Source of the DNA: Clostridia bacterium
GTDB lineage: Bacteria > Bacillota > Clostridia > Christensenellales > CAG-138
Reading direction: 5' to 3'
Assembly (NCBI GenBank): GCA_017407205.1
Contig: JAFQXA010000034.1
Location: 35,584 to 99,583, forward strand
Length of the DNA stretch: 64,000 nucleotides
Shown here: positions 15,375 to 42,386 of the stretch, piece by piece
How positions within the stretch are numbered: the first letter of the stretch is position 1
Layout: every line of letters begins with the position of its first letter
Translations under genes and position numbers: made by a program
Notes under the pieces: generated by a model
Seen by the model: the letters and a program-made list of their open reading frames with translations, nothing else
What the model was told of the DNA's origin: nothing
The model's database searches: none

Positions 15375-18300
15375 TCATATTCCGATTACTTTTTTCTGCA
15401 ATGCCGCAATATCTCTCGAATTAAGTTCCTTGTCGGTTCTCATATCACCGGCAATGGTTGTAATTTCATCTGCTTGTGCTGTTCCCAGAATTATCTTCTG
15501 TATAGCGGCTATATCTCTTGAATTTATTTTGCCATCACCCGTCAAGTCGCCAACAATCGCAACATCGAGCGTATCAACAACTTCTCCGTCTATAACAAGC
15601 CTTATTTGTGCACCTGTGCCTACAAGCGCATCACCCTCTGTAATCTTGTTGCCCAGATTATCATAGATTTCTATATTTTCGGGCTTATCAAATGCAGTTA
15701 TTATCTGTATCAGAGAAGTTTTTTCTTCAACACCCTTTAACTTTCCGTTTTCTGCCACATAAGTGCTTTCCGCTTTAAGTGTAAGTCCACTCGGAACAGG
15801 CAGCGTAGGTTCAGGTGTGGATGTAGCCTCCGCTGTGGGTGTAGGCGTTGGGGGTACGATGTCCGACTTATAGTCAGTTATTACCTCTGCACCCAATGTT
15901 CTGCGAATTGCGTAGTTACTTATTGCACGGAGCATTATTACTGTTATGCGGTCAAAGCATAAGCTTCCGTCCAAGCCGTTGACTTTCATCGCAGTCGGTG
16001 CTTGATTTGCGTGTGCCTTGACATATTTGGCATACGCTTTTCCGAGATAAAGATAATCGTCTTTGTCTATCACTTCATCTTCAAATGTGTCTTCACGCAC
16101 AGGGTTGATGGGATTGGTTACTTCGTACACCGTTATGGTTTCAGGCAAATCCTTGTAATCCGAATCCCAGGAAAGTTCTTTGAGCACTTCCGCCGCCATC
16201 TCTGCATAAGTTGCCTGCCTGAAGATATATTTTACTTCTTCACCGTTTTTGTTTGTAAACTCAACAGTCTTGCTTGATGGAATCTGTGCATACATATCCT
16301 TTTGATATGCTTCATAAAGTGATGCGCAGGCAGTTATTGCAAGCTTCATCGGAATTTCATACGATGTTCTTGCTGTTTCATAGTCTGCGGAAATGCTTTC
16401 GGGCAATATGCCTGTTTTTCTGAAGCTTCGCATGATTCTTGCAAGCACCAGAAGTTGGTGTGTGAAATTCATGCTTCCGCTGTACGGGAAACCTTCTGTT
16501 TCTTCAAACTCTACTGTCATAAGCGGTTGACGTCTTGAATACTTGTCAAGCTGTTCAAGCTGTTGTTCAACAAAATGAACATATCCTTCCTTGCCTATCA
16601 GGTTTTCAGCTTCGTTTACAACAAAGCTGTCAGAAGCCGTCCAAGTAAGCTCTGTGCAATCCTGTAATATTACCCTGTGAACAGCACCTGTATTTGAAAG
16701 CTCCGAAACTGCCTTTGCACAAACATCAAAAAACTGTGACATATTGAGCAATTCGTCTTTCAGGATTACGCTTTGGGGCAGAATGAAGTTTTCATCATAG
16801 TAGTCAATAAGACTCTTTGATGCAGAAATTATATCCTCGACCTCAGCATAAGTCTTTCTCTCCATTGCTATATCAATATTTTCGGGAAGCTCGCCATATT
16901 TTGCAAGGTATGAGAATATTCTCATAACAGTTATCAGTGTACGGTTGTAGTCCATCCTTCCGTTTATTCCGTAGCTGTGGTTTACCGCAATAAAGGGCGC
17001 GGGAACACACAGATACTCGTTTTCTTGTGTGAGTGTATTCATCTGTGCAAGCTGCCTTTTTACGACGTTTGAGTATGCCAACTTACTCATTGTGTCAGAA
17101 GACATTCTTGCTTCCTCCACGCCTTGAGGCTCTGTGCAAGTATAGTATGGAACATCATTTTCGTTTGCATCAAGAAGATTTGTGAGTGCTTCACAGGCAA
17201 CTCTGAAATATGATGCTTTATTTGCTGTAATTTCACCAAATGTAAGACTTTCGGGAACTGTACCTGTTTCTTCGTATTCTTTTCCTGCCTCCATCAAAAC
17301 AGCCGTTGCTTCGTCAAGCGTGAATACAGCTTCCGGCTCAGGTGTAACAATAGGTTCGACTATTTCTTCGTCCAAATAGCGCTTTGCCATTCTGAACTCA
17401 AACTTATTGCCATATGAGTCATAAAGGGAACTTTTATTACTTACAAAGTATATAGGCATTTCAGTTGAGGGCCAGATTTCCGAAATATCCTGTTTTGCCT
17501 TGAAAGTGATTTCCATGAGCCTGTCTATTTTATTGATGGGAACAGCAGCATCCGACCAAATGAATCGGAATTCCTTTGTGTCCTCATTATATACACTTTC
17601 CTTTACAGTGTCTGCACTTCTGTCATCAGGTAACTTAAAAGAAACAAGCTCTATAAATTCCGTGTTGATTCTTATCGAGAAATCCATCGCGCCTATTCTT
17701 CTCGCCTTAAAGCCGACGGGGGCACTTATAGTTACTTTAAATTCTTCGCCTGCTGATATGGAATGCTTATCCGCTGTAAGATTAAACGCATTTTCTGCAG
17801 CTGTGTAGTTATATGTAACGGTTTTGTTCTTCATGCCCTTTACCGCACGCTGGAATGCCAAAAGATCCAAAGCATTGATTTTTTTGTTTCGGTCAACATC
17901 AATTACATCCTTTGTTATTCCAATATGCTTTGTGCCGTTTAAAATCGCATCCGTTATAATGTCGGAGTCCGTTTCATTTCCGTAGCCATCCGCATTAACA
18001 TCACCGTTGACAAGCATTACGATTGAATCCAAAATCGTTTCTTCATTTTCTCGGCAAACACACCAACCTGTACGAACTATGCTTTGATTGTCAGTTATTC
18101 TGTTGCCTTTTTCGTCTGCAACATACAAATCACGGTTCACAAAGTTTTTCAAAAACGCTTCAATCGTTGTGCCGCCGGGTACATTTTTCAGATAGTCAGT
18201 TGAATAATCAAGAACATAGAAGCTTTCTTCACGAAGCTCTATCGCCACTCTTTCATTTCTCTTGTATGCAGTTGTTATGTATTCCGGCAGAACACCGTTA

Positions 18301-18875
18301 TTATAGTAGTAAGCGAGTGCCCACGAAAGTATACCGGCAACACGCGGTGCTGAAATATTACCTGAATATTCCGTTATTTTATCATTCGGATACGCAAGAT
18401 AATCAAACGCGCCACTTCCTGTTTCTGCATAATATGCCAAAACTTCATCTGCCATATCAAGGTACATTTCCTTTGATACCATGGGCGCTTTAAACGTATC
18501 ATCAGAATACTCACGGAAAGGCACAAACTCGTATGTAATCCTCATGTCAGTATTACCCTCGGACAGAGCTTTTAGTATTCTCGCTGCCAGCAAAGTATAT
18601 GACGGTGTATTGAAAACATACAGAGTTGAGCTGTCGCCTCTCATTGTAGCCCTGTCTGCAACTTCAGTATGGGTATAAAACCTGTTTCGAACAGCATTGA
18701 AACGCTGCAATGCAACCCCCATTGAAATATCGTCTTCAATAATAACGATATCGGGATTCCATTCATCATCAGGATCAGGATTTTGAGCAAAGCTCGGCAT
18801 AACCGCCATCAAAACGAAAGCTATCGCCAGAACGAAGGCTGTCAACTTTTTTATTGTTCTATTTAATGAATACAT
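15375..18875 (-). CDS. secreted scaffoldin-like protein: PMBR-like repeat modules, internal dockerin, cohesin-like domain, C-terminal dockerin
   Basis: Preferred start is ATG at comp. 18873-18875 (MYSLNRTIKKLTAFVLAIAFVLMAVMPSFAQ is a signal peptide) behind AGGAGAG. Dockerin Ca-loops: DVNADG...DVDRNKKINALDLLAFQRAV (~17835-18010) and GDLTGDGKINSRDIAAIQ...GDMRTDKELNSRDIAALQ (15375-15560). Cohesin-like beta-sandwich pattern at ~17400-17815. Repeated modules end in LPE[YNS]I. Confidence 0.75.
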   Translation of the reverse strand: MYSLNRTIKKLTAFVLAIAFVLMAVMPSFAQNPDPDDEWNPDIVIIEDDISMGVALQRFNAVRNRFYTHTEVADRATMRGDSSTLYVFNTPSYTLLAARILKALSEGNTDMRITYEFVPFREYSDDTFKAPMVSKEMYLDMADEVLAYYAETGSGAFDYLAYPNDKITEYSGNISAPRVAGILSWALAYYYNNGVLPEYITTAYKRNERVAIELREESFYVLDYSTDYLKNVPGGTTIEAFLKNFVNRDLYVADEKGNRITDNQSIVRTGWCVCRENEETILDSIVMLVNGDVNADGYGNETDSDIITDAILNGTKHIGITKDVIDVDRNKKINALDLLAFQRAVKGMKNKTVTYNYTAAENAFNLTADKHSISAGEEFKVTISAPVGFKARRIGAMDFSIRINTEFIELVSFKLPDDRSADTVKESVYNEDTKEFRFIWSDAAVPINKIDRLMEITFKAKQDISEIWPSTEMPIYFVSNKSSLYDSYGNKFEFRMAKRYLDEEIVEPIVTPEPEAVFTLDEATAVLMEAGKEYEETGTVPESLTFGEITANKASYFRVACEALTNLLDANENDVPYYTCTEPQGVEEARMSSDTMSKLAYSNVVKRQLAQMNTLTQENEYLCVPAPFIAVNHSYGINGRMDYNRTLITVMRIFSYLAKYGELPENIDIAMERKTYAEVEDIISASKSLIDYYDENFILPQSVILKDELLNMSQFFDVCAKAVSELSNTGAVHRVILQDCTELTWTASDSFVVNEAENLIGKEGYVHFVEQQLEQLDKYSRRQPLMTVEFEETEGFPYSGSMNFTHQLLVLARIMRSFRKTGILPESISADYETARTSYEIPMKLAITACASLYEAYQKDMYAQIPSSKTVEFTNKNGEEVKYIFRQATYAEMAAEVLKELSWDSDYKDLPETITVYEVTNPINPVREDTFEDEVIDKDDYLYLGKAYAKYVKAHANQAPTAMKVNGLDGSLCFDRITVIMLRAISNYAIRRTLGAEVITDYKSDIVPPTPTPTAEATSTPEPTLPVPSGLTLKAESTYVAENGKLKGVEEKTSLIQIITAFDKPENIEIYDNLGNKITEGDALVGTGAQIRLVIDGEVVDTLDVAIVGDLTGDGKINSRDIAAIQKIILGTAQADEITTIAGDMRTDKELNSRDIAALQKKVIGI

Positions 18876-18914
18876 TTTTAACTCTCCTGTTTGCAATTCT
18901 TAAACTCCAAGTTT

Positions 18915-30896: not shown

Positions 30897-30930
30897 AAAA
30901 AGCTGTCCTCGCGGACAGCTTTTTATTTTC
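30895..30930. terminator. bidirectional terminator (holA / end of the 7-gene operon)
   Basis: AAAAGCTGTCC-tcgc-GGACAGCTTTT, flanked by an A-run and a T-run. Confidence 0.8.
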
Positions 30931-30933
30931 CAA

Positions 30934-32001
30934 TTATCTTTTAACAACATTATGATATTGATAAAATCGACGTGCTCTCGGATTTGCCAAAATCGGTTCG
31001 AACGGCTGAACACCTGCCATGTCTGTATTTGCATTACCTTCAAGCAATATAAACTCTCCGTTTTCTTGAACGACAACATCCCAGGCAATATATTTTATGT
31101 ATTTCACTTTATTGTGCACGGATAAAATTTTTGCCTTGATTTCATCAAAATGAGAAACCCTCTCTCCCTCAATCGGCATATTGGTATCGGGATGATGAGT
31201 AATCCATGTGAGTTTTCTGTCACGTACAAGATATACAGGGGACATTACACCTGTATCCACATCTATTCGTGCAAGGCATGAGCCTTTGCCAACGTTATCC
31301 ACAGGAACGGATCTTTCAGAACCAAAGCGATGGAAACAAGCGGCAAGAAACGCGTCCTGCGTGTCCGGATCTATCATAGTAATAAATTTTACAGTGTTTG
31401 CAGTCCGCGGGAAAATTTTCTTTGAATATTCGGCCTGTTCCACCGTTTCGCTGATCATGTAATTATTCAGCTTGCTCAGCTTTTTATTTAAATCGGCTTC
31501 GGAAATTTCCTTTTCATTGAGATAGTAGCTGCCATTATATTTGCCTACTTTGAAAATACCTTCACCGCTGCCTGCATCAAACTTTTTAATCATGTATGAA
31601 GAATTATCTTTCAAATGCCTATCTAAAAAATCAATAGGATTTTGAGGTGTACGCTCTCCCCCTGCCTCCAGCGGAACTACCTTGCCACGCATGAAATATC
31701 CCGGAGTCTCTGCCATTTTCACAAATGCTCGCATATAATCCGTGAATACTAATTTATTGTTAAGCAGCTCGGTATATCCGGCATTGATTTTTATGGCTTT
31801 TGTATACATTTCCCAATCCGTAAGGAAATCCTTGCGGTCATACTTTTTGAAATCGTAAAAAACAGCCTGATCCGGCATAAAGCCATGGAAAAGCACAGAC
31901 ATTTTTTGCCTGAATGTTACATCAAACTTGCCGCTTCCGGGCTGAAGCCATTTCTTAAGATATCGAACAAGTCCAGCAAAAAACAACAGTTTTTTCTTCA
32001 T
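30934..32001 (-). CDS. ATP-grasp ligase, sugar-transfer-associated type (ATPgrasp_ST-like)
   Basis: 355 aa. N-terminal LFHGFMPDQAVFYDFKKY...LNNKLVFTDYM and C-terminal FILLEGNANTD (E-x-N Mg site). Family assignment is from memory of the family pattern. Confidence 0.6.
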   Translation of the reverse strand: MKKKLLFFAGLVRYLKKWLQPGSGKFDVTFRQKMSVLFHGFMPDQAVFYDFKKYDRKDFLTDWEMYTKAIKINAGYTELLNNKLVFTDYMRAFVKMAETPGYFMRGKVVPLEAGGERTPQNPIDFLDRHLKDNSSYMIKKFDAGSGEGIFKVGKYNGSYYLNEKEISEADLNKKLSKLNNYMISETVEQAEYSKKIFPRTANTVKFITMIDPDTQDAFLAACFHRFGSERSVPVDNVGKGSCLARIDVDTGVMSPVYLVRDRKLTWITHHPDTNMPIEGERVSHFDEIKAKILSVHNKVKYIKYIAWDVVVQENGEFILLEGNANTDMAGVQPFEPILANPRARRFYQYHNVVKR

Positions 32002-32038: not shown

Positions 32039-33133
32039 TCATTTATATGTTTTCTTGCGGTTAACACCCACGGAACGGAAAATCAATCGTTTAAACTTTC
32101 TTACGCCATATACAGTCAACATACACAATTTGCTCGCCACCGCGTATATCGGTTTCGGCAGGGCATACAATTTTGACAACAGTTCAAAGCGTATTTTTGC
32201 ACCATGTAATTCCTTTCCCGTAAGCTCATATGTCACGGGAGTATATTTTTTCTGTTGTGCAAATGCAACTTCAACGACACTTCGTGTATCTGTGTCAAAG
32301 ACAACAATCATGGTACGTCTGTTGATTTTCTGCCATGTTTTGTGAGTCAAGCACGATACTTTCATCAGCATATCTGTTTCGGCATACTTATCTCCAACAT
32401 GTGGATAACAAAGTTCTTGATGTTCATTCAAAAAGAAATTAGGGAACATAAGATTTCCCAGCGAAATATATGCTTCTTTACCGTTGTGACAAACTTTTCC
32501 CAGCGGAATATGAGGATGATGGCCGATTATCAAAACACATTTTGGATGCTCGAGTATTTTTTTTGCCCAACTTATAATTTCTTCGGGGGGAAGCGCAACA
32601 TATTCTGCCGCCCAATGAATAGAGACAATCGCATCATTATCACCCAAATTATCCAAATCTGAAATTACTTTTTCCAGCGAAAACCCATTTACACCCGGCT
32701 TATTATCTTCTGCACAAGAGACATTCCTTAAATAATGTGTGCCGTACTGACAATATGCTAACATTACTAAATTATCAGTAATTTCAATACAGCGCCCGGC
32801 TTCTTGCTGATTACTGCCTGCACCAACAAAAGGTATTCCCCACTCATTTAAGCAACTGAGCGTATCCAAGATGCCGTCATCACCGCAATCATGAATATGA
32901 TTGTTAGCCAATGTTACATAATCTGCATTCAATGACTGTATACGTTCTCTGCAATCGGGTGTTGCATATATGGTAGTTTTACCGCTTATCGGCAACTTTT
33001 TGCTTATGCATTGTTCGAGATTAATAATTCGCTTATCAGCATTGGAATATTGCGAAATCCTTATATGCTCTAATGATTCGCTCGACAGTGCATCTCCGAC
33101 AATAGCACAATCACCACCAAAAGCTATCTTCAT
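32039..33133 (-). CDS. CapA/PGA_cap family metallophosphatase-like protein
   Basis: 364 aa. VTLANNHIHDCG, SIHWAAEY, IIGHHPH motifs. No signal peptide or TM seen. ATGA overlap with the upstream gene. Confidence 0.75.
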   Translation of the reverse strand: MKIAFGGDCAIVGDALSSESLEHIRISQYSNADKRIINLEQCISKKLPISGKTTIYATPDCRERIQSLNADYVTLANNHIHDCGDDGILDTLSCLNEWGIPFVGAGSNQQEAGRCIEITDNLVMLAYCQYGTHYLRNVSCAEDNKPGVNGFSLEKVISDLDNLGDNDAIVSIHWAAEYVALPPEEIISWAKKILEHPKCVLIIGHHPHIPLGKVCHNGKEAYISLGNLMFPNFFLNEHQELCYPHVGDKYAETDMLMKVSCLTHKTWQKINRRTMIVVFDTDTRSVVEVAFAQQKKYTPVTYELTGKELHGAKIRFELLSKLYALPKPIYAVASKLCMLTVYGVRKFKRLIFRSVGVNRKKTYK

Positions 33134-34368
33134 TCTGCCTCTTCCTCCATAGCTACTATCTTTGCTTTTTTCTTATAAAACAGAACACCGCAGACAACAG
33201 CACAGACAACGCAAAATACATTTGAAATTATGTTAGCATACGAATATCCTAAAAGACCCTGAGTTTTTGTCAGATACAATGTACTTGAAATATAGACAAC
33301 AAAACACAAGCCACGAATAATTATCTGATGAGTAATTGTTGTTTCTGCCAACAAAAACATAAGCAAAAGACCGCTTGCAAAACCGATAACCGAACCTATA
33401 TTTATCGGAAGATTTAAAAGATGAACGCTTTCAGCTAAATTAGGATACAGAATATTTACCACGATAGGTGTTGCAACACAGCAAAGTGCAACCAAAACCG
33501 CACCAACGGGAATGCTCCATAAAAGCATCTTTTTAAACGCTGATAAATTTATGGTAGATGTCTTTCTGTCAGCCAGGTAGCTGAGAAGCAATGTGGACAA
33601 CGGGTGCAATACCATGTTCATAATCTTACCTACCATGGACACCGCATAATATTCCGATACTGCAACAGAGCCCAAAATCGGCTGGATCAATACACGGTCA
33701 AGATAGGCAGTTGAAGAAAGCAAGTAAGAAACAATCAAAATCGTTGTAGGTAACCATAATTTTTTGAGCTCCGTAGTTGGTCTTTGCAAGTGCAAAACAG
33801 AGCCTTTCATCACAACAAACAAAACAGCAGCTATTTCACCGGTTGCAAAAATAACTAACCAATTTTTCACGAGCAGGAACAATCCAAGTCCGGCAATGTA
33901 TCCTGCACTTAAAATTAAGAAGTATATCAAATATCCTTTAAACCAAAGGCTTAAACGGAATTCTACCTGAGCGTAATATCTCAATAAGCATATCACCATG
34001 AATATGCCGATTTCCAACGCAAACAGAAGGTCATTTGTCTTTAAATAAGCGTCACCTGCTCCTATCGCAAAAACGACCAACGAATAAGCGCCAAGCAAAG
34101 TCAGGAAATCACCATTGTTTATGGTTTCATTATGCTTATATAAAATTCTCTGATGTCCGAGCACCGTTCCGAACATTTGCGGAAATACATAAGAAATACC
34201 CAAATAATACAGCACATCACCCAAGTATGCTGCACCATGCGTAGCATTAATATAAGGTTGAATGAAAATCTGCTGTACGATATTAAGTATGATTACAGCC
34301 GAAATCGTATACAAAAAATCTTTTGAGAATTTACCTAAAAGGGATTTCTTGATATTAATGACAAACAC
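33130..34368 (-). CDS. polytopic membrane protein, Wzx/MOP-flippase-like
   Basis: 412 aa and hydrophobic throughout (about 12 predicted helices by eye). The start is a GTG abutting its own AAGAAGG, so the true start is uncertain. Confidence 0.55.
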   Translation of the reverse strand: MFVINIKKSLLGKFSKDFLYTISAVIILNIVQQIFIQPYINATHGAAYLGDVLYYLGISYVFPQMFGTVLGHQRILYKHNETINNGDFLTLLGAYSLVVFAIGAGDAYLKTNDLLFALEIGIFMVICLLRYYAQVEFRLSLWFKGYLIYFLILSAGYIAGLGLFLLVKNWLVIFATGEIAAVLFVVMKGSVLHLQRPTTELKKLWLPTTILIVSYLLSSTAYLDRVLIQPILGSVAVSEYYAVSMVGKIMNMVLHPLSTLLLSYLADRKTSTINLSAFKKMLLWSIPVGAVLVALCCVATPIVVNILYPNLAESVHLLNLPINIGSVIGFASGLLLMFLLAETTITHQIIIRGLCFVVYISSTLYLTKTQGLLGYSYANIISNVFCVVCAVVCGVLFYKKKAKIVAMEEEAE

Positions 34369-34393: not shown

Positions 34394-35662
34394 TTAAAAC
34401 ATCATTTTTTCAATTTCATCAAAAGCCGCCTCATTGCCGGGATACTTTTCACGCAAAATTTCAAGTTCGTAATAACCCGGCTTTGTGTCTTGCGGTACAG
34501 CATACGAGAATACTGTATTCCCCTGATGCTCCCTTATAAAGCCCAAGGCTTTTTCCATGGCTTTTTCACTACTTTCCGACTCGTTCATGCACTTGTTTAT
34601 CAACGCAGTCAAATTTACTCTGTAAAGTGCATCACCCTTGGGGCTTATTGTTCCACTATATGGCTCTAATTCGCCCATAGCATCACGATAAAGCATCGTC
34701 AAATAGTTAAATCCTGCAGCTGCCTGAAAATAGTTTGAAAGCCAAGGTCTCAAATTAGCTTCAATTACAACCCATTTGTTATGCTTCTTGCTATACATTG
34801 TTTCAACACCTAAAAAGCCATGCCAATTTAAAGCTTTTATTGTGCATATTGCAAGAGAAGCAATGTCTTCTTCAAAATATGTCTTGCTGACAACACCCGT
34901 ACCGTACTTGGGTGGATATTCCATTATTTTATGCTGCGCACTAATCATGCGAATATTGCCTTGACCGTCCGCATATAAATAGCACGATACTTCCTGTTCA
35001 AGACGATCAAATTCTATCTTTTCTTGAACTACCACTTCAAAACCTGACTCAATCTCCTCGTTTAGAAGCTTTCTCATCTGTGTTCCATCTTGACATTCAA
35101 CTGCTTTTCTTCCATCATGCATCCTTGCGAATGCATTATCGATAGTCTTTAATGACGGTTTGTAAACGCAAGGATAAACCATATTTTCCACAGCAAAATC
35201 AATATCTTCTTTACTATTAACTGCATATGTCAACGGGATTGAAACATCATGCTCCTGCATCGTTTTATAAAATGTATCTTTCCTAAGCTCTTTCCAGCAA
35301 GTCTTATTAAAATCACTGGCACCGGGTTGCAAAAAATATTCTTCCAATACATCATAATGGTTATTTACGAAAACCAACGCTGTATCGCTCGTGGAAATAA
35401 GCAACAACTTTCTTCCGTATTGTTTAAAGAGCTTCTTTCCGAGTTCCTCCATCTGCTTTGCTGCCATTTCTTCATCGGCAGCAGGATTTGCAATACAAAC
35501 AGGCTCGTTGAAAAACCTTGATTTTTCGCTAATCCAAGCGGAAGCCCCTTCCCATGTGAAAACAACAGGAATAACAGGAATATCCTCTTTCGCAAAGCAA
35601 CGCATAACATCTAAAAAGCAGTTATCACTTGCACGCAATACAACCACAGGTATTTTGCTCAT
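34394..35662 (-). CDS. ATP-grasp carboxylate-amine ligase
   Basis: 422 aa. Pre-ATP-grasp N domain, YPCVYKPS, VVQEKIEF, WVVIEANLRPW (E-x-N). Confidence 0.7.
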   Translation of the reverse strand: MSKIPVVVLRASDNCFLDVMRCFAKEDIPVIPVVFTWEGASAWISEKSRFFNEPVCIANPAADEEMAAKQMEELGKKLFKQYGRKLLLISTSDTALVFVNNHYDVLEEYFLQPGASDFNKTCWKELRKDTFYKTMQEHDVSIPLTYAVNSKEDIDFAVENMVYPCVYKPSLKTIDNAFARMHDGRKAVECQDGTQMRKLLNEEIESGFEVVVQEKIEFDRLEQEVSCYLYADGQGNIRMISAQHKIMEYPPKYGTGVVSKTYFEEDIASLAICTIKALNWHGFLGVETMYSKKHNKWVVIEANLRPWLSNYFQAAAGFNYLTMLYRDAMGELEPYSGTISPKGDALYRVNLTALINKCMNESESSEKAMEKALGFIREHQGNTVFSYAVPQDTKPGYYELEILREKYPGNEAAFDEIEKMMF

Positions 35663-35704: not shown

Positions 35705-37564
35705 TTATCTTAAATTAAATTGCCCATTATGGCTTAACAATCTTTCTTCCTCACTCTGCGCAAATGCTGTTTCCCAGTTATTATAACTGTCAATTGCACC
35801 AAACTTGCCTGCATGAGTAATAATATCACCGTTACGATACTTCTCACTCATAATTCCCGGTGCTGTCATAATGCGTTTATTCATAGCTGACTTAAGAGCA
35901 CAAGGATCTGACAAGCAAGGTATTATATCGCTCGAAATTTGTATTTTTTGTTCTGTAAAGTATTTTGATTCTCTTGCTATATGCTCCAAAATACAAGAAG
36001 CTTCTTTTATCAAATGATTTTTCCGTTCCTCCACGAAAGGATGCTGTGCAGCTCTGCGTATATCTTCATGGTTTTCACGGAACAATCTGACTGCGCGTCT
36101 CAAGAGTTTTGAGCTTTCAATAACATCATCAGCAGTAGCAGCATGATCTGCTTCACAATAGCTAACCAAATGTATAATGCTCGGCGATAACAACATTTGA
36201 AGCAAAGTAGTTCTTGCCAACTGATATTTTGCATAATCCTGGTCTACCGAAAAATGCTCAATTCCTGCACGGGTTTCCAAATAAATATTGTGCTGTGTTG
36301 CTGTAGGCTTAAGTTTTCGGATAATCTCCCGTGCTGCATAAAATTTAGCCAAATCTGCATAATCACCCATTTCAACAGGCTTATTAAACTGGCATTGGAA
36401 GATCATATGTTGTGATAAAGCTGCATACATTACGCTTGCAATCAATCCATAATCTGCTACAAAAACAGCATCATGTGCCAAACGGGATGACCATTGATTC
36501 GGATCATTCATCTCTGTGGGAATACCCTGCTTTACAAGATATTTTACAGCCCCAATATGCTCATCAATGGCTTTATCAACACTCATCGGACCACGGCCGT
36601 CAAGCTCGCTGAACCAAAACAAAGGAACAGCTTGATGTGCACCACGCAACATACCAACCTCAAGGCATGTATCAATAAAAGGAATAATATCCTTTACATG
36701 ACAATACGGCTTCACTGACGGGAAATTACCTATCCGCGAAGCTGAAAACAGCTCTTCTAAATCGGATTTTGTCTTGTACGGAACTCCACCATCGTTTTTC
36801 ACACCATAAAACGCATTAGCATCACCGAAAAATCGCTGTGATAAATCCGACGAGCCCAACGAAATTTCATCCACAGCACCTGCTGACGCAATGCGTATAA
36901 TCCCTTCAACCGTAGGTGCTATTGAATCATCCGGGATGCCAAAATGTGTGCGAATCATCGGAATATCGGATTCTGCCATGCGAGTCGGAAAATGTAAAAG
37001 CGCTTTATCCGATGGTCTTTTTAAAGGCTGCTCATCTAAATACAAATCGCCTCTTACTACTTCTTTTGCTATTTCATCAAGCAGTTCAATTCTTTCAGGG
37101 CTCGCTTCCTCACGGAACACATCCAATATTTTCTGTGCTTCTGAATGATTTTCACCGCCAAAAAACTTGATTGTTCCAATCGTTGTTTCATAAATATCTT
37201 TTGACTGCATCTGTAAATTCAGATTGTATTTAGCATCAAATCCTAACTGATGAACTGCAGCAAGCGTTTCAGGTAATGCCGCAAAGCAAATAGAGCTCTT
37301 TTCAAAAATGAAAGATGCTCCTTGTTCCAAGGCTTGCAAAAACTTCGTTAATTCGCCAATCGCCTGCTCTGCGCTTAAACGATAGCTTAAGCCCAAGAAG
37401 GTCGGACATACCTGCTTTATTATTTCTATTTTCTTTTCCAAAGCGGTATCCGGAGGAACTACTTGTGTCTGAACTCCAAGCATTTTTGCAATTCGTGCAG
37501 CTCTATAAATACCGACAGTATGTGGGTCACCACCCAATGTCATCCCCAAAAAAATACGTTCCAT
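35705..37564 (-). CDS. B12-binding-domain protein fused to a large glutamate-mutase-E-like(?) domain
   Basis: The track starts at 37591. I prefer ATG at 37564 (MERIFLGMTLGGDPHTVG) behind GGAGGA. GDPHTVG fits the DxHxxG cobalamin motif and LGLSYRLS fits SxL. The C-terminal ~480 aa shows only faint similarity by eye to GlmE/MutE (NFPSVK vs GFPGVN). Confidence 0.5.
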   Translation of the reverse strand: MERIFLGMTLGGDPHTVGIYRAARIAKMLGVQTQVVPPDTALEKKIEIIKQVCPTFLGLSYRLSAEQAIGELTKFLQALEQGASFIFEKSSICFAALPETLAAVHQLGFDAKYNLNLQMQSKDIYETTIGTIKFFGGENHSEAQKILDVFREEASPERIELLDEIAKEVVRGDLYLDEQPLKRPSDKALLHFPTRMAESDIPMIRTHFGIPDDSIAPTVEGIIRIASAGAVDEISLGSSDLSQRFFGDANAFYGVKNDGGVPYKTKSDLEELFSASRIGNFPSVKPYCHVKDIIPFIDTCLEVGMLRGAHQAVPLFWFSELDGRGPMSVDKAIDEHIGAVKYLVKQGIPTEMNDPNQWSSRLAHDAVFVADYGLIASVMYAALSQHMIFQCQFNKPVEMGDYADLAKFYAAREIIRKLKPTATQHNIYLETRAGIEHFSVDQDYAKYQLARTTLLQMLLSPSIIHLVSYCEADHAATADDVIESSKLLRRAVRLFRENHEDIRRAAQHPFVEERKNHLIKEASCILEHIARESKYFTEQKIQISSDIIPCLSDPCALKSAMNKRIMTAPGIMSEKYRNGDIITHAGKFGAIDSYNNWETAFAQSEEERLLSHNGQFNLR

Positions 37565-37598
37565 TCTCAATCCTCCGTTAAATATCGCCATATAAGCG

Positions 37599-38876
37599 TC
37601 AGTCCTTTGATGTGAAGTATGTTCCTTTTAGATATTCAACGATAAACTCGTCAGAAAACTCCTCCAAATCTCTCCAAAAATATTTAGGACTATCTGGAAA
37701 TTTCCTGTGATATTGTTCCATTACATATTCCATTGGTGCTATATCAATTTCCAATCTTTTTGCAATCATCATAATAGGCAAAAAACTTGATGGAATATCC
37801 TCTTCAACATAACGCCACTGCGGAACAGACATTTTCTGGTAAGTAGGTGTGCGTTTTATAGTATCCCCCAAAGATTCCCCAATAACTCTTTCTACACCGT
37901 AAGTATAATCAAGCCAATGCTGTGCAGAGACAATCGCACCCGAAAGCAGACTCAATGTTTCACTGCGCGCTTTGCGAAGTTTATTAATATCATCGGTAGA
38001 GTTTTCAATCTTTCGCAATTCGCCCAATAGGAATGCCCATTCTTGCTCTCTCTCTTTTCCGCGCAAGCCGTATGTTTCCATACCTAATTTATCTGCAATT
38101 TTCAGTCGGATCTGATCAATTTCTTCGAGCAATGACGATACCTCTTTTGAATCTCCTATTGCTTGCATATAATACGAATACAGCACCCCTTCTTCTTGTG
38201 CTTTTTTGATATCTTCGTACTTAAGCACATAAGGCGTAGGATGAAACACCGCACCTATATTTCCGATAGAAGTAACAGCAGGAACATAACTTATAATCGC
38301 CTGCGGAAAAACTTTTGACAAAAGCTCTATTGAACTTTTCTTGAAGCAGCCTTCAAGTGATGTCACCCAGCAACGCTTTCTTCTCTTGATATAAGCAGTT
38401 CCGGCAGCAGGGGCCTTACATGAATAGGGATTTGTAGCAAAGCAAATAAAAGGATGCCTTGTACCAAGTATATTCCATAGATACGGAACAGCAAATGTTC
38501 GAGGTGGTGATAAAATTACAGGCACATCAGCTTCCGCAAGCCCCTCTTTTTTTAAGGCCAAAATTGTTTCCTGCAAGTAATGGGACGGCTCTGCTATAAT
38601 AATCAAGTCGCTTTCCCAAACGAGCTTTTTAAGGTCATGTCCCAATTGTTCTTCACAAACAGGAATTAAGCGAGAAGTTTCTTTATTCTTGTTGGCAGGC
38701 CTTTCAAGGTACAATCCGCCCTGTTCCCTTACTGCTTTCAAAAAAGACTCAGCATGAGCACTATTACGAACATAGCCGTAGACTGAATATCCTTCATTAA
38801 GAAAATCCGCAAGATAAGCACGCCCTGTTTGAGAGCTTGCACAATAAATGCCTATGCGAATTTCCTTGTTTGGCAT
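37599..38876 (-). CDS. opine (octopine/nopaline) dehydrogenase family protein
   Basis: The track starts at 38936. I prefer ATG at 38876, 1 nt after the GT2 stop (TAATATG). N-terminal Rossmann-like IGIYCASSQTG. C-terminal RYVEEDIPSSFLPIMMIAKRLEIDIAPM matches the RYxxEDxPxGLvP signature. Confidence 0.65.
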   Translation of the reverse strand: MPNKEIRIGIYCASSQTGRAYLADFLNEGYSVYGYVRNSAHAESFLKAVREQGGLYLERPANKNKETSRLIPVCEEQLGHDLKKLVWESDLIIIAEPSHYLQETILALKKEGLAEADVPVILSPPRTFAVPYLWNILGTRHPFICFATNPYSCKAPAAGTAYIKRRKRCWVTSLEGCFKKSSIELLSKVFPQAIISYVPAVTSIGNIGAVFHPTPYVLKYEDIKKAQEEGVLYSYYMQAIGDSKEVSSLLEEIDQIRLKIADKLGMETYGLRGKEREQEWAFLLGELRKIENSTDDINKLRKARSETLSLLSGAIVSAQHWLDYTYGVERVIGESLGDTIKRTPTYQKMSVPQWRYVEEDIPSSFLPIMMIAKRLEIDIAPMEYVMEQYHRKFPDSPKYFWRDLEEFSDEFIVEYLKGTYFTSKD

Positions 38877-38877
38877 A

Positions 38878-39810
38878 TTAGTCGATCTCCTTATCACGAA
38901 TAGTATACAACGGTCCTTTCTTTGCTTCTGAAACAATCTGAGCCAAGTAATGACCTATAATACCCTGTCCAAGTAATATCAATCCACTGGACGCCAACAT
39001 GATGATGACCTGTGTCGCAAAACCTGCAACGCTGTAACCCGTTACAAGATATCGGATAAGGTAATAGAGAATCAATATCGCACTAACAAATACATCAAAC
39101 ACACCAACATAGCCAAGAACCAACAACGGTAAATTTGAGTTGTATAAAATATTATTGAAAAAGTCCTTCACCAAGCGCTTAAAGCCGTAACCGCTTTTAC
39201 CAAACTGGCGTGCGTTATGCTCAACAGTAACATTTCCTATACGGTTTGTAGTACGCAAAAGCATATGCCCGATTCTAGGGCGTGACTCCGTAAATTTACA
39301 AAGCGCATCAGCTACATAACGCTTCATTGCCCTAAAGCTCGTTAAATGAAGAGTTTTTGGTTTTTTGAAAATATAACTCGTAAACGCATTCGTCATATTA
39401 GTCCCCAAATTTCGAATGGCACTGTGCTTCTTTGATTCATACTGACCACACACTACATCCATTTGAGGAGTTTGCTCCAAATACGCAATCAGCTTTTCAA
39501 CTTCATGAGGAGGATGTTGCAAATCATCATCCATTGTTATAACAATATCACCCGAAACATGTCCCATGCCGCACAACAACGCTGTATGCTGTCCGAAGTT
39601 GCGTGCCATATAAATTGCCTTTACGCGTTTGTCTTTTTCATGCAACTCATGCATAATTTGGGCAGAACGGTCTTTCGATGAGTCATCAACCAAAACAAGT
39701 TCAAAATCACCGTCATACTTTTCGTCAAACAAAGACGCAAGTCTTGCATGCAACTCCTCCAAAGTATTTTCAGAATTGTACACAGGAACGACAACAGAAT
39801 ATTTAGCCAT
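38878..39810 (-). CDS. polyprenyl-phosphate glycosyltransferase, GT2 (GtrB/ArnC/CsbB-like)
   Basis: Preferred start is ATG 39810 (MAKYSVVVPVYN) behind AGGAGA. Has VDDSSKD, MDDDLQH and two C-terminal TM helices. Confidence 0.85.
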   Translation of the reverse strand: MAKYSVVVPVYNSENTLEELHARLASLFDEKYDGDFELVLVDDSSKDRSAQIMHELHEKDKRVKAIYMARNFGQHTALLCGMGHVSGDIVITMDDDLQHPPHEVEKLIAYLEQTPQMDVVCGQYESKKHSAIRNLGTNMTNAFTSYIFKKPKTLHLTSFRAMKRYVADALCKFTESRPRIGHMLLRTTNRIGNVTVEHNARQFGKSGYGFKRLVKDFFNNILYNSNLPLLVLGYVGVFDVFVSAILILYYLIRYLVTGYSVAGFATQVIIMLASSGLILLGQGIIGHYLAQIVSEAKKGPLYTIRDKEID

Positions 39811-39889
39811 TTCCCGTCTCCTTTTCATTTGTATTTTCGCTGTTTTTATTTCTGAATCTTCCTATGTATAAATAGAAATACTCAAAGTA

Positions 39890-39918
39890 ATTATACACTC
39901 CGGCGCTTAATAAATCAA
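39890..39918 (-). promoter_or_regulatory. promoter of the 7-gene operon
   Basis: The reverse strand reads TTGATT (comp. 39913-39918), a 17-nt spacer, then TATAAT (comp. 39890-39895). Confidence 0.6.
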
Positions 39919-40024: not shown

Positions 40025-40846
40025 TCAATCTTGCGGCGTGTCTATCTCCGATACTGTGTAGTTTGCATAGAATCCATCGGATGAAGCAAACTGTTTTTCC
40101 CAATACTCCACTACCTGTTCCCTTGTAAGGCCTGTAAATGTACCGGAAATAAACTTGAATGAAACAGTATTGCCTTCAAGCTTTGCTTCCTCGTATGAGC
40201 TTACTGCATTGAAGTTTGCCTTTGCTGTTTCCTCTGTGCCATAAACTATTACCGAACGCTGACTTACATACTTGTTATTGATAAAATAGTATGTAACTGT
40301 TTCGGTCGTAGTTTCGCCTTTGCCTACAAGCTGAACAGCCTTTGCATCAAACGAGCCGTCGCCTGCTTCGTCATTTAATTGAATACCTACCGACCATGTG
40401 CTGTAAAAGTCTTTTGAAGAATCAAACTGCTTCTGCCAATATTCAACCACCTGCTGTTTTGACATTCCCTGGAATGCATTTGATACAAACTTGAACGAAA
40501 CCGTACTTCCCTCAATCTTTGCATCCTCGTATGTGCTGACTGTATTGAAGTTTGCCTGTGCTGCTTCTTCCGTCGTATATGTTATAACCGATTCCTGTCT
40601 TGAATATATATCTCCTACAAAATAATAAGTTACCTTTTCATCGGATGCACTTGTGGGTGCTGAAAGCACAACAACCTCAGGATCTTCCTCACCGGGCTTG
40701 GGTGTGAAAACAGCATTGGGATCTACATTGTTTGAAACCTGGTCATTGATTGAGCCCTGTACGCCGGGAGCGTCCTTTCCGCACGCTGTCATAAGACAAA
40801 GCATTGCGGCTACCAACAAAATTGCTATGAATTTTCTGCTCTTCAT
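40025..40846 (-). CDS. lipoprotein with two tandem ~100-aa repeats; function unknown
   Basis: MKSRKFIAILLVAAMLCLMTAC lipobox. Repeats are VTYYFVGDIYSRQESVITYTTEEAAQANFNTVSTYEDAKIEGSTVSFKF... and VTYYFINNKYVSQRSVIVYGTEETAKANFNAVSSYEEAKLEGNTVSFKF... Confidence 0.7.
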   Translation of the reverse strand: MKSRKFIAILLVAAMLCLMTACGKDAPGVQGSINDQVSNNVDPNAVFTPKPGEEDPEVVVLSAPTSASDEKVTYYFVGDIYSRQESVITYTTEEAAQANFNTVSTYEDAKIEGSTVSFKFVSNAFQGMSKQQVVEYWQKQFDSSKDFYSTWSVGIQLNDEAGDGSFDAKAVQLVGKGETTTETVTYYFINNKYVSQRSVIVYGTEETAKANFNAVSSYEEAKLEGNTVSFKFISGTFTGLTREQVVEYWEKQFASSDGFYANYTVSEIDTPQD

Positions 40847-40931: not shown

Positions 40932-42386
40932 TCATTCCTCAAAATTTGAAAAGTAGTCGGACCACTCGTGGAGTGTGCTGCCCTCTTCATATTGTGTAGT
41001 GCTTGTTGCAACAGCATCATCATTTACATCACTCGCCACGCGTATCAACCCCTTTACCGAACGGTATTTATCAGTTGTTACCTCTTCTTTCCTGATAATT
41101 TGACCTTTTTCGTCACGATATTCCTTGTAAGTTTTGGCAACAACGCCTATCCGCTTTTCTCTCTCCACTTCCTTTTTACCGCTCGGCAACGATTTATCGA
41201 CGACTATTTCGTCACCCAAATCATCCAGTGTTCCTGTCTTTTTCGATGTTAAAGTTATGCTTGCAAACTCTTTGCTTTTTCTGCCGTATATTCTTACCGT
41301 AACAGCCTTTTTCTCTGTATCCGTTATTGCAGAAACAGTTATGGGGACATCTGAATTATTCTTAAACTTAAAGTTCGGTCCGCCCGTGCTTATGGTTGCA
41401 TCACGCCCAACATCAATATAGCCAAGCGGCCACGAGTGATGCGACCTGTCCGTTACTTCAAGATCTGCCATCAAGACAGCATTGTAAAGCGTTGTGCTTA
41501 CTTGGCACACACCGCCACCGTACTCCTCAACATACTTTCCATCCCTTATTCCCGTTGCCTCTTTCCAGCCATTCGCCCGATTTCTGTCGCCCAAAATCTT
41601 GTTCATATCAAATTCTTCATCGACATCAAGCCTTACTCCGTCTATGAGACTTGCCGCCTTTTGTATGTTATGAACGCGATTTGCACGCGAATATGTTTCG
41701 CCTGCAAATGATGTTGTAAACTCACTTATAAGCATATTATCATTTTGGGCATCGGAAAGAGTATATTTTGGATTTACCGCCTTCATCTTTGCCTGTATTT
41801 CATTCCTGCCCTCATTTATGCAAGCAGAAAGCTGTTTTGCGGCATCAACTAAATCAACACACTCCCCACACTGCTCCTCAGTATATGAAAACGAGCCCTC
41901 TGCACTCTTGTCATAGCTTGCCTGTGCATCAAGCGAGCCTTTGTTAAGCGGTGCTGTTAAAACGCTCAAAACTTTTTCGAGCTCTTTTTCATCAACGATT
42001 TTGTTTGTATAAAGCTGTCTGCCCTCACTGTTATTCCCCGGGCAATATTTGCTCAGTTTCAAAGCTTCCAAAACAATTTCTTCATCAGCAAATGTGACAG
42101 GAAGCTTATCACCCGTTACATTGACCTTCTTGCTGTCTGTTTTAACAGTTATGCTCATTTCCTTTAATTCCTTTGTATGCTTTCTTTTAAGTGCATCCAA
42201 AGTCTCCTGCACACTAAGCCCCGAAACTTCCACATCGTCAATGAACACATTTTCACCGATTTTTGCGTTGTCTGCAATCGCCGCATTTATATCTTGATAC
42301 TCCTTTTTTTGACAAGCTGACAAAATAACGCACAAAATCAGCATAAAGCTGACAAAATATAAATTTCTTCTTTTATTTTTCAACAC
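40932..42386 (-). CDS. VanW-domain lipoprotein with a C-terminal G5-like domain
   Basis: Lipobox CVILSAC. GGGVCQVSTTLYNAV...DRSHHSWP (VanW core). C-terminal G5-like stretch. Confidence 0.85.
   Translation of the reverse strand: MLKNKRRNLYFVSFMLILCVILSACQKKEYQDINAAIADNAKIGENVFIDDVEVSGLSVQETLDALKRKHTKELKEMSITVKTDSKKVNVTGDKLPVTFADEEIVLEALKLSKYCPGNNSEGRQLYTNKIVDEKELEKVLSVLTAPLNKGSLDAQASYDKSAEGSFSYTEEQCGECVDLVDAAKQLSACINEGRNEIQAKMKAVNPKYTLSDAQNDNMLISEFTTSFAGETYSRANRVHNIQKAASLIDGVRLDVDEEFDMNKILGDRNRANGWKEATGIRDGKYVEEYGGGVCQVSTTLYNAVLMADLEVTDRSHHSWPLGYIDVGRDATISTGGPNFKFKNNSDVPITVSAITDTEKKAVTVRIYGRKSKEFASITLTSKKTGTLDDLGDEIVVDKSLPSGKKEVEREKRIGVVAKTYKEYRDEKGQIIRKEEVTTDKYRSVKGLIRVASDVNDDAVATSTTQYEEGSTLHEWSDYFSNFEE

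Follow-up and report, generated by a model that had tools for sequence, protein, structure and literature searches.

A single-chain relative of glutamate mutase, paired with an opine-dehydrogenase-type enzyme, in a clostridial glycan-modification operon

The closest described system to the protein considered here is the glutamate mutase of Clostridium cochlearium and C. tetanomorphum (GlmS/GlmE, also named MutS/MutE; PDB 1cb7, 1ccw and 1i9c; Pfam PF02310 and PF06368). In this enzyme a base-off/His-on B12 domain with a DxHxxG motif, and a catalytic part, consisting of a TIM barrel and then a C-terminal domain, reside on two subunits that form E2S2. An engineered GlmES fusion, methylmalonyl-CoA mutase, IcmF and 2-methyleneglutarate mutase instead combine barrel and B12 domain in a single chain, with the B12 domain C-terminal to the barrel; the coenzyme A (CoA) mutases have a long channel for binding acyl-CoA. 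To our knowledge, only about a dozen types of adenosylcobalamin (AdoCbl)-dependent isomerase have been described, and additions to this list are rare. We analyzed a stretch of 64,000 nucleotides from a Clostridia bacterium (contig JAFQXA010000034.1), hereafter the window, which encodes at positions 35705-37564 of its minus strand a 619-residue protein that we call MUT. Like glutamate mutase, MUT has a DxHxxG B12 domain, a TIM barrel and a further C-terminal domain; unlike it, MUT is one chain with the S-like domain at the N-terminus, an order that also sets it apart from the single-chain mutases. The surroundings differ as well: the neighbors of MUT are genes for an opine-dehydrogenase-type enzyme (ODH), ATP-grasp ligases and a family 2 glycosyltransferase (GT2), with no methylaspartase or glmL/mutL, and the context is biosynthetic (glycan loci) where that of GlmS/GlmE is fermentative. 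We consider it reasonably probable that MUT is an AdoCbl-dependent carbon-skeleton mutase of the glutamate-mutase type which, together with ODH, makes a branched acid that ATP-grasp enzymes attach to a lipid-linked sugar. The gene is delimited as follows.

35705-37564, minus strand: MUT gene, encoding a 619-residue single-chain protein with a B12 domain and a GlmE-like mutase domain (open reading frame, homologs, model, fold match).
35705-35707, minus strand: stop codon of MUT (open reading frame).
37572-37576, minus strand: Shine-Dalgarno sequence GGAGG, a perfect match 7 nt before ATG 37564 (read from the sequence).

The open reading frame for MUT extends from 35705 to 37591 on the minus strand, with an upstream alternative ATG at 37591. 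The preferred start is the ATG at 37564 (MERIF), which is favored over the upstream codon because GGAGG lies 7 nt 5' of it, because the N-termini of homologs coincide with its Met in alignment A1 (43 homologs sharing 46-82% identity with the window protein), and because NCBI gives a length of 619 amino acids for the identical protein MBQ2662299.1, from a metagenome-assembled genome (MAG) of an uncultured Clostridia bacterium. A homolog search returned at least 543 full-length members. In NCBI and JGI nearly every named member is a "hypothetical protein", the one exception being an Amphibacillus marinus homolog called "Methionine synthase" in UniRef. Literature searches aimed at the MUT family or at the MUT/ODH pairing found no paper, and a search on opine-type glycan substituents generally found nothing on either.

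The N-terminal part of MUT contains the His motif of a cobalamin-binding domain and a variant of its second motif, at the following positions.

37160-37564, minus strand: N-terminal cobalamin-binding domain, residues 1 to ~135, flavodoxin/Rossmann-like with five strands (model, Pfam, Foldseek).
37511-37528, minus strand: DPHTVG, the base-off/His-on motif, D13-G18 (invariant in A1; codons read).
37373-37393, minus strand: GLSYRLS, G58-S64, the second B12-domain motif, containing the Ser of "SxL" (A1; alignment to 4jgi).

D13, P14, H15, T16 and G18 are invariant in all 43 diverse homologs of A1, DxHxxG is present in 120/120 close MUT homologs, and at least 90% of the members of the wider superfamily retain H15 and G18. 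In the second motif G58, S60, Y61, R62 and L63 are likewise invariant in A1, and the pattern G[LIVM]S[YF]R[LIVM] is matched by 114/120 members. S60 lies 45 residues past H15, where a spacing of about 41-45 is usual, with a Leu at +3 from the Ser where the strict motif expects +2. The family profile matched the corrinoid protein 4jgi weakly, with the His motifs aligned and GLSYRLS placed on GLSGVLT. Matches to the Pfam B12-binding family (PF02310) were sub-threshold throughout: the window protein scored 11.8 bits (E 0.22) against a gathering cutoff of 32.1 bits, and 30 of the 43 members had a match, the best with E 2.2e-5. In the structural model, strands at residues 4-9, 32-36, 56-61, 91-96 and 115-118 with helices between them make up a five-stranded alpha/beta fold, and Foldseek matched about 132 residues to the corrinoid protein 1y80 (template-modeling (TM) score 0.72, root-mean-square deviation 3.5). 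Judged from sequence conservation, the B12 signature is real and far above chance despite two departures from the strict consensus, and H15 would be the lower cobalt ligand in a base-off/His-on arrangement.

The remainder of the protein was then compared with known structures, with the following division of the chain.

36965-37159, minus strand: helical linker, residues ~136-200 (model helices 143-154, 160-177 and 192-198).
35708-36964, minus strand: GlmE-like TIM barrel and C-terminal helical/beta domain, residues ~201-619 (Foldseek, hhalign, invariant columns).

An AlphaFold model built on A1 (predicted local distance difference test score (pLDDT) 89, predicted TM score 0.87) consists of an alpha/beta domain from residue 1 to ~135, a helical linker, a beta/alpha barrel at ~203-470 and a C-terminal helical/beta domain. 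When this model was searched against the PDB with Foldseek, the first match was GlmE (1cb7_B; E 7.5e-12, target-normalised TM score 0.64, 513 columns), and ranks 2-41 were occupied by AdoCbl isomerases only, namely lysine 5,6- and ornithine 4,5-aminomutase, methylmalonyl-CoA mutase, 2-hydroxyisobutyryl-CoA mutase and IcmF. The similarity to the single-chain AdoCbl mutases is significant (ranks 6-41), but GlmE matches MUT better than any CoA mutase does; 2-methyleneglutarate mutase is without a PDB structure and so lay outside this comparison. The initial annotation of the window, made from the sequence alone, had recognized a base-off/His-on B12 signature and suspected a single-chain fusion of the S and E types of subunit, with the conserved His of GDPHTVG and a TIM-barrel mutase fold in the C-terminal domain as the points at which its proposal could fail. 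The signature was borne out and the His is invariant; the C-terminal domain has the expected fold, with GlmE and then 40 AdoCbl isomerases as its best matches; and the fusion is real, with the B12 domain N-terminal, and conserved throughout the family.

Sequence links to GlmE emerged through distant relatives. An exhaustive search by profile, over 1.84 billion representatives, yielded 419 superfamily representatives at E <= 1e-3 (50%-identity clusters). One of them, P0250, which shares 33% identity with the window protein across 521 residues (E 5e-73), exceeds the gathering cutoff of Met_asp_mut_E (PF06368), with 27.5 versus 26.6 bits. Its C-terminus is a fused ATP-grasp domain of the GSH-S/RimK type, and a Peptidase_C26 gene follows it. 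Three others (P0264, P0265 and P0272) are fusions with MutL (PF13941), a family whose name comes from MutL, encoded by the third gene in glutamate mutase operons; in the MUT superfamily, MutL was found only in this fused form in distant paralogs. An ODH gene lies immediately upstream of both P0250 and P0264, the two paralogs having readable upstream flanks. We aligned the families by hhalign, for which the GlmE reference sequence agreed with the PDB at 482/483 positions. The close-family profile gave a probability of ~2% against either GlmE alone or a shallow GlmE alignment, which was shallow because none of the GlmE homologs listed was less than 78% identical. Once the distant relatives from the exhaustive search had joined the MUT profile (alignment A3), the comparison succeeded owing to their inclusion: residues 191-606 aligned co-linearly with GlmE 47-441 over 367 columns (E 4.6e-4, probability 33%), with nine beta elements in the same order. 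BLASTP of P0250 against GlmE agreed with this register over the latter half of the barrel. MUT is therefore related to GlmE by fold and by transitive sequence links. Of the two pairs of segments that the initial annotation had matched by eye, QGIPTEMNDP with QGVHINREPF agrees with the hhalign result, while IGNFPSVK with LNGFPGVN does not: hhalign placed GlmE LNGFP on NDGGVPY, and IGNFPSVK on GlmE NLPLQAR, so that the earlier pairing was probably one beta element out of register. MUT fails sequence membership in the GlmE family and shares its fold, and probably its chemistry too; what is new in MUT is the reversed order in a single chain, an apparently different pocket, the ODH partner and the glycan context.

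Some of the distant mutase paralogs are fused to a MutL, ATP-grasp or Peptidase_M15 domain. Among these paralogs (relatives P0248-P0263; loci L060 and L061) the first B12 motif reads C-V-H-V-x-G in place of D-P-H-T-x-G, with the His and Gly kept; at L061 Mur-ligase and FemAB genes lie close by on the opposite strand, a possible sign that this subfamily works on peptidoglycan peptides.

A B12 motif of this kind is not confined to mutases, and we asked whether MUT could be a methylcobalamin-dependent methyltransferase or corrinoid carrier, an aminomutase using pyridoxal phosphate (PLP) and B12, or a B12-dependent radical S-adenosylmethionine (SAM) enzyme. The DxHxxG His-on motif is common to MetH and corrinoid proteins, the profile match to 4jgi and the "methionine synthase" name in UniRef point the same way, and lysine 5,6-aminomutase occupies fold ranks 3-5. 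The fusions to MutL, however, indicate an AdoCbl mutase, and each variant met its own objection. We rejected a MetH-like methyltransferase since neither MetH chains nor corrinoid-methyltransferase barrels occurred among the 50 fold matches listed, where the cobalamin-independent MetE stood at rank 47 (E 1.1e-3); Pfam scans of the window protein and the 43 members also found no homocysteine- or pterin-binding partner domain. A PLP aminomutase was rejected since the N-terminal domain offers no conserved Lys to carry PLP as in KamE (residues 1-135 contain no invariant or near-invariant Lys in A1) and the aminomutases rank below GlmE. A radical-SAM/B12 enzyme was rejected since CxxxCxxC occurs in 0/120 MUT members. 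Any of these identities is thus very improbable.

The second component of the proposed pathway is the gene just upstream of MUT, a near-obligate partner that the initial annotation had overlooked and that is a required part of any pathway.

37599-38876, minus strand: ODH, opine-dehydrogenase-type partner, 425 residues from ATG 38876 (Pfam, motifs, model, fold).

The open reading frame called mechanically starts at TTG 38936 (37599-38936) and overlaps the GT2 gene; the true start is likely ATG 38876 (MPNKEIRIG), because homologs are ~421-425 residues long. ODH matches Pfam Octopine_DH with E 1.6e-16 (61 bits, cutoff 30), and a phmmer search of the PDB found CENDH (1bg6, E 1e-5), in which the catalytic His and Arg/Asp motifs are matched by AVFHP and RYVEED; the corresponding residues H212, R355, Y356, E359 and D360 are invariant. 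In a fold search with the ODH model (pLDDT 94.5) the top 14 PDB matches were all opine dehydrogenases (1bg6, E 7e-17, TM score 0.81). Sequence, conservation, model confidence and predicted fold thus agree that ODH is an opine-dehydrogenase-type enzyme. It shares its fold, His and RYxxED with CENDH (1bg6), octopine dehydrogenase (3c7a) and the CntM-type staphylopine, pseudopaline and yersinopine dehydrogenases (6c4t, 6c4n and 6c4l), but is only 10-16% identical to them. Its dinucleotide motif is non-canonical (G9-I-Y-x-x-S-S-Q16-x-G18-R-A, with G9, Q16 and G18 invariant) although the Rossmann fold is confidently modeled, its residues 163-168 form a basic patch, IKRRKR, that is invariant, and it was never found with a CntL-type nicotianamine-synthase gene, being paired with a B12 mutase instead. 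Among well-flanked loci, defined as those with at least 1.5 kb on either side of the mutase, 42/43 contain an ODH gene, which is directly adjacent to MUT in 31. The ODH family is similar in size to the MUT family and located on the same contigs, and its divergence parallels that of MUT (42-53% identity). The sole well-flanked locus with no ODH within 10 kb of the mutase (L035, from the Bacteroidales MAG RGIG3192) still has the usual ATP-grasp, ATPgrasp_ST and aldo-keto reductase neighbors.

After the opine dehydrogenases, ketopantoate reductases and D-mandelate dehydrogenases came next in the ODH fold search (ranks 15-39, E 5e-8). These neighbors raise the alternative that MUT acts on a dicarboxylate with no amino group, converting 2-hydroxyglutarate to 3-methylmalate or using a substrate of the 2-methyleneglutarate type or one derived from 2-oxoglutarate, and that ODH is a 2-oxo-acid reductase which supplies or removes the hydroxy acid. 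GlmE slowly rearranges 2-hydroxyglutarate, the aligned residues of MUT differ from the arginine claw of GlmE, and 10 glycan loci have aldo-keto reductase genes, all of which would suit such a substrate. However, ODH keeps the His and RYxxED specific to opine dehydrogenases, which clearly outrank the reductases (E 7e-17 versus 5e-8), and a conserved acidic residue of MUT aligns near GlmE E171, the amino-group contact. We regard a non-amino substrate as decidedly unlikely.

The pocket itself bears on whether MUT is simply a fused glutamate mutase, which would convert L-glutamate to free (2S,3S)-3-methylaspartate for direct attachment by ATP-grasp enzymes while ODH acts elsewhere, for example on a sugar or another acid; the initial annotation had raised this possibility for the mutase and the ligases. 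The barrel residues invariant across the superfamily are R205, Y287, D322, E351 and D365. In the hhalign alignment, in which residue equivalences are tentative at its probability of 33%, R205/H207 fall on GlmE Q64/R66, Q243-R244 at T99-R100-Q101, E320-L-D322 on N170-E171-G172 and G347-IPTE on G208-VHIN; GlmE K326, which contacts the adenosyl ribose together with E330, is mapped to V467. E471, conserved in at least 90%, falls on GlmE E330, the ribose-binding Glu, in both the hhalign alignment and the P0250 BLASTP alignment. The acidic E320/D322 near E171 and the placement of E471 would fit a glutamate mutase, as would GlmE being the best structural match, P0250 passing Met_asp_mut_E and an amino-acid permease in the C. 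tetani cluster; glutamate mutase is also already known as a source of 3-methylaspartate in secondary metabolism, for example for the starter units of macrolactams. Set against this, the third claw Arg of GlmE, R149, has an invariant Tyr aligned with it and the conserved basic pattern differs, 0/43 members match the Pfam or NCBIfam GlmE models, and the ODH pairing, which holds in 42/43 loci and also in paralogs 25-30% identical, would be unexplained were ODH unrelated. C. tetani, moreover, carries a canonical GlmE in addition to MUT, so the MUT family cannot simply be equated with the housekeeping enzyme. A fused glutamate mutase in this strict sense is unlikely.

We next considered the genomic settings. 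A scan of one genome per species gave 55 MUT loci in Bacillota, Bacteroidota, Chloroflexota, Thermotogota, Planctomycetota, Myxococcota, Hydrogenedentes, Vulcanimicrobiota and Desulfobacterota (Smithella) and in one archaeon, a distribution over about ten phyla. Neighbors were clustered for 60 loci, about half of which are glycan loci. A ~413-residue ATP-grasp protein (cluster C2) is adjacent to the mutase in 25/60 loci, ATPgrasp_ST is present in 18, often in multiple copies, and DegT aminotransferase in 18, Bac_transf in 14, GT4 in 13, Polysacc_synt_2 dehydratase in 10, aldo-keto reductase in 10 (glycan loci) and PGA_cap in 8. The initial annotation had placed MUT in a glycan-modification operon and linked its product to the neighboring ATP-grasp ligases; the operon assignment holds, with GT2, ATP-grasp, PGA_cap, ATPgrasp_ST and membrane-protein genes present, and the P0250 fusion together with the 25/60 adjacent ATP-grasp genes supports the link. 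The MUT copy of C. tetani sits, with an amino-acid permease gene, within a nonulosonic-acid/Maf flagellin glycosylation island. This island has been described as hypervariable in a 2026 paper on Clostridium flagellin that covers it with no mention of the MUT/ODH genes (PMC13317340). Two Hydrogenedentes MAG loci, L023 and L027, contain GT2 (44-46% identical to that of the window), ODH and MUT. L023 also contains a window-type ATP-grasp (42% identical), located directly downstream of MUT between MUT and ODH, and ATPgrasp_ST (39% identical), while L027 is a partial cassette with the common ~413-residue (C2) ATP-grasp instead. The recurrence of GT2, ODH, MUT, ATP-grasp and ATPgrasp_ST in a Clostridia operon and in Hydrogenedentes suggests horizontal transfer of this cassette between phyla. 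The 422-residue ATP-grasp of the window was considered as a conserved partner and rejected, since tblastn found it in only 2 other loci and at full length only in L023; elsewhere the ~413-residue C2 cluster is the conserved neighbor.

Several observations weigh against an AdoCbl mutase of the glutamate-mutase type with a role in glycan decoration. The canonical "GG" motif of the B12 domain is degenerate, reading AGL in the family consensus and AAL in the window protein. MUT and its close family have no direct sequence match to GlmE or to any Pfam or NCBIfam mutase model: Met_asp_mut_E was unmatched in 43/43 members even at E 10, an NCBIfam search of the window protein matched no mutase or GlmE model, and PDB searches with the single sequence and with the family profile returned only noise and the weak B12-domain match. 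The hhalign link carries a probability of 33%, with residue equivalences that are correspondingly tentative. By that alignment the claw Arg R149 is mapped to the invariant Y287, R100 falls beside R244, which is invariant in the close family only, and the basic residues R324, R361, R432, K395 and K407 are conserved instead of the GlmE claw. Since the arginine claw, aligned in this way, is not intact, the substrate may not be glutamate. Genes for adenosyltransferase, MeaB and MutL are all absent from the window operon. Lastly, at about 25 loci ODH and MUT form a bare pair, surrounded by unrelated genes and lacking glycan or ligase genes (Amphibacillus marinus and Brevefilum, for example, and also members of Thermotogota and Planctomycetota and an archaeon); glycan decoration is therefore not the sole role of the ODH-MUT module.

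We nevertheless continue to favor a mutase of glutamate-mutase type acting together with ODH. The analysis shows the B12 motif, both folds, transitive GlmE homology, gene pairing and ATP-grasp and MutL fusions; from these we infer the use of AdoCbl over other corrinoid forms, what the substrate and acceptor are, and which enzyme acts first. For MUT the steps are the established chemistry of GlmE carried over by analogy. The GlmS-like B12 domain would hold the cofactor base-off/His-on through H15 over the top of the GlmE-like barrel, and homolysis of the Co-C bond would generate a 5'-deoxyadenosyl radical held by a ribose contact to E471. This radical would take hydrogen from a glutamate-like 2-amino or 2-N-substituted dicarboxylate, and the substrate radical would undergo a 1,2-shift by fragmentation and recombination to give a branched skeleton of the 3-methylaspartate type. 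ODH would use NAD(P)H to join an amine and a 2-oxo acid by reductive condensation. This could happen in either order: ODH could consume the thermodynamically disfavored branched product, giving an N-carboxyalkyl "methyl-opine", or MUT could act second and rearrange an N-substituted glutamate already made by ODH, namely an N-(dicarboxypropyl) amine derived from 2-oxoglutarate. The equilibrium of glutamate mutase favors glutamate, and the NAD(P)H-driven condensation by ODH would therefore be a sensible pull. The abundant conserved basic residues of MUT and ODH are consistent with a polycarboxylate. The neighboring ATP-grasp enzymes would ligate the acidic product onto a sugar by amidating a sugar amine or carboxylate, and the sugar, carried on polyprenyl phosphate (GT2 and the flippase-like protein), would end up as a decoration of a cell-surface polymer.

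On a broader scale we tentatively raise the possibility that ODH and MUT constitute an unrecognized, ancient two-enzyme route to "methyl-opine" (N-carboxyalkyl-3-methylaspartate-type) acids, present in about ten phyla, whose product would be a free metabolite at the bare pairs and elsewhere, through ATP-grasp ligation, would decorate capsules, lipid-linked sugars and the nonulosonic acids of flagellin. If this were true, MUT would be the first AdoCbl isomerase dedicated to surface-glycan decoration and would act on a new class of AdoCbl-mutase substrate. A family of about 540 members with reversed architecture, an active site apparently unlike that of GlmE and a dedicated ODH points to a new radical rearrangement and a new building block. 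Recurrent placement in three settings, namely Bacteroidota capsule loci (Alistipes, Rikenellaceae and gut Muribaculaceae), the C. tetani flagellin island and operons for modification of lipid-carrier sugars, would tie vitamin B12 availability to the structure of surface antigens, and the decoration structures at such loci could then become predictable. The module consists of two genes and is present in the cultured Amphibacillus marinus, Halolactibacillus alkaliphilus and C. tetani; the MUT proteins of A. marinus and C. tetani are WP_091497092 and WP_035109491, respectively.

In the window, MUT and ODH are part of a compact operon of seven genes on the minus strand, in the order GT2, ODH, MUT, ATP-grasp, membrane protein, PGA_cap and ATPgrasp_ST. 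Its remaining features are given in this order, preceded by the candidate promoter.

39890-39918, minus strand: sigma-70-like promoter candidate TTGATT-17-TATAAT upstream of GT2 (consensus match only; not enriched over shuffles).
38878-39828, minus strand: GT2, first gene of the operon, GtrB/ArnC-like with two C-terminal transmembrane helices (Pfam Glycos_transf_2, E 2.9e-34; hydropathy).
34394-35662, minus strand: ATP-grasp ligase, 422 residues, directly 3' of MUT (Pfam ATP-grasp, E 1.6e-5, and NCBIfam ATP-grasp).
33130-34368, minus strand: polytopic membrane protein, 412 residues, at least 9 transmembrane segments, flippase-like (no Pfam match; hydrophobic segments).
32039-33133, minus strand: PGA_cap (CapA-like) protein (Pfam, E 1.7e-33).
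30934-32001, minus strand: ATPgrasp_ST, sugar-transfer-associated ATP-grasp, last gene of the operon (Pfam, E 7.5e-32).
30897-30924, minus strand: intrinsic-terminator-like hairpin at the operon end, with a 12-bp stem and a T-run (strong terminator).

In architecture GT2 resembles polyprenyl-phosphate sugar transferases (GtrB/ArnC-like). The operon recalls systems that modify sugars on undecaprenyl phosphate (an ArnC/GtrB GT2 with a flippase), as well as the amino-acid-decorated glycans built by ATP-grasp enzymes, in combining a GT2 that has C-terminal transmembrane helices with a polytopic membrane protein and ATP-grasp ligases; other MUT loci contain DegT aminotransferase and Bac_transf genes. 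Literature searches found no characterized system of either kind with a B12 mutase or an opine dehydrogenase. The 412-residue membrane protein is not conserved in other MUT loci and is possibly a divergent flippase; its gene was also considered as a MutL-like reactivase and rejected, since the product is a polytopic membrane protein.

Core genes flank the operon: holA, comEC and queA/tgt lie at one end, rex, uvrAB and coaX at the opposite end. No cobalamin riboswitch was found near the operon, and the sole Rfam match in the window is a full-length raiA RNA motif far away (RF03072, 14385-14590, minus strand; 185 bits, E 3.5e-47). Just upstream of the operon, 40025-40846 and 40932-42386 (both minus strand) encode a predicted secreted protein with weak DUF4376 and phage T4 Y01A-like matches, and a VanW-domain protein with an N-terminal transmembrane or signal segment. 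Elsewhere in the window, 15375-18896 (minus strand) encodes a 1173-residue protein with a pseudomurein-binding-repeat match and a C-terminal type I dockerin, the usual mark of a cellulosome component.

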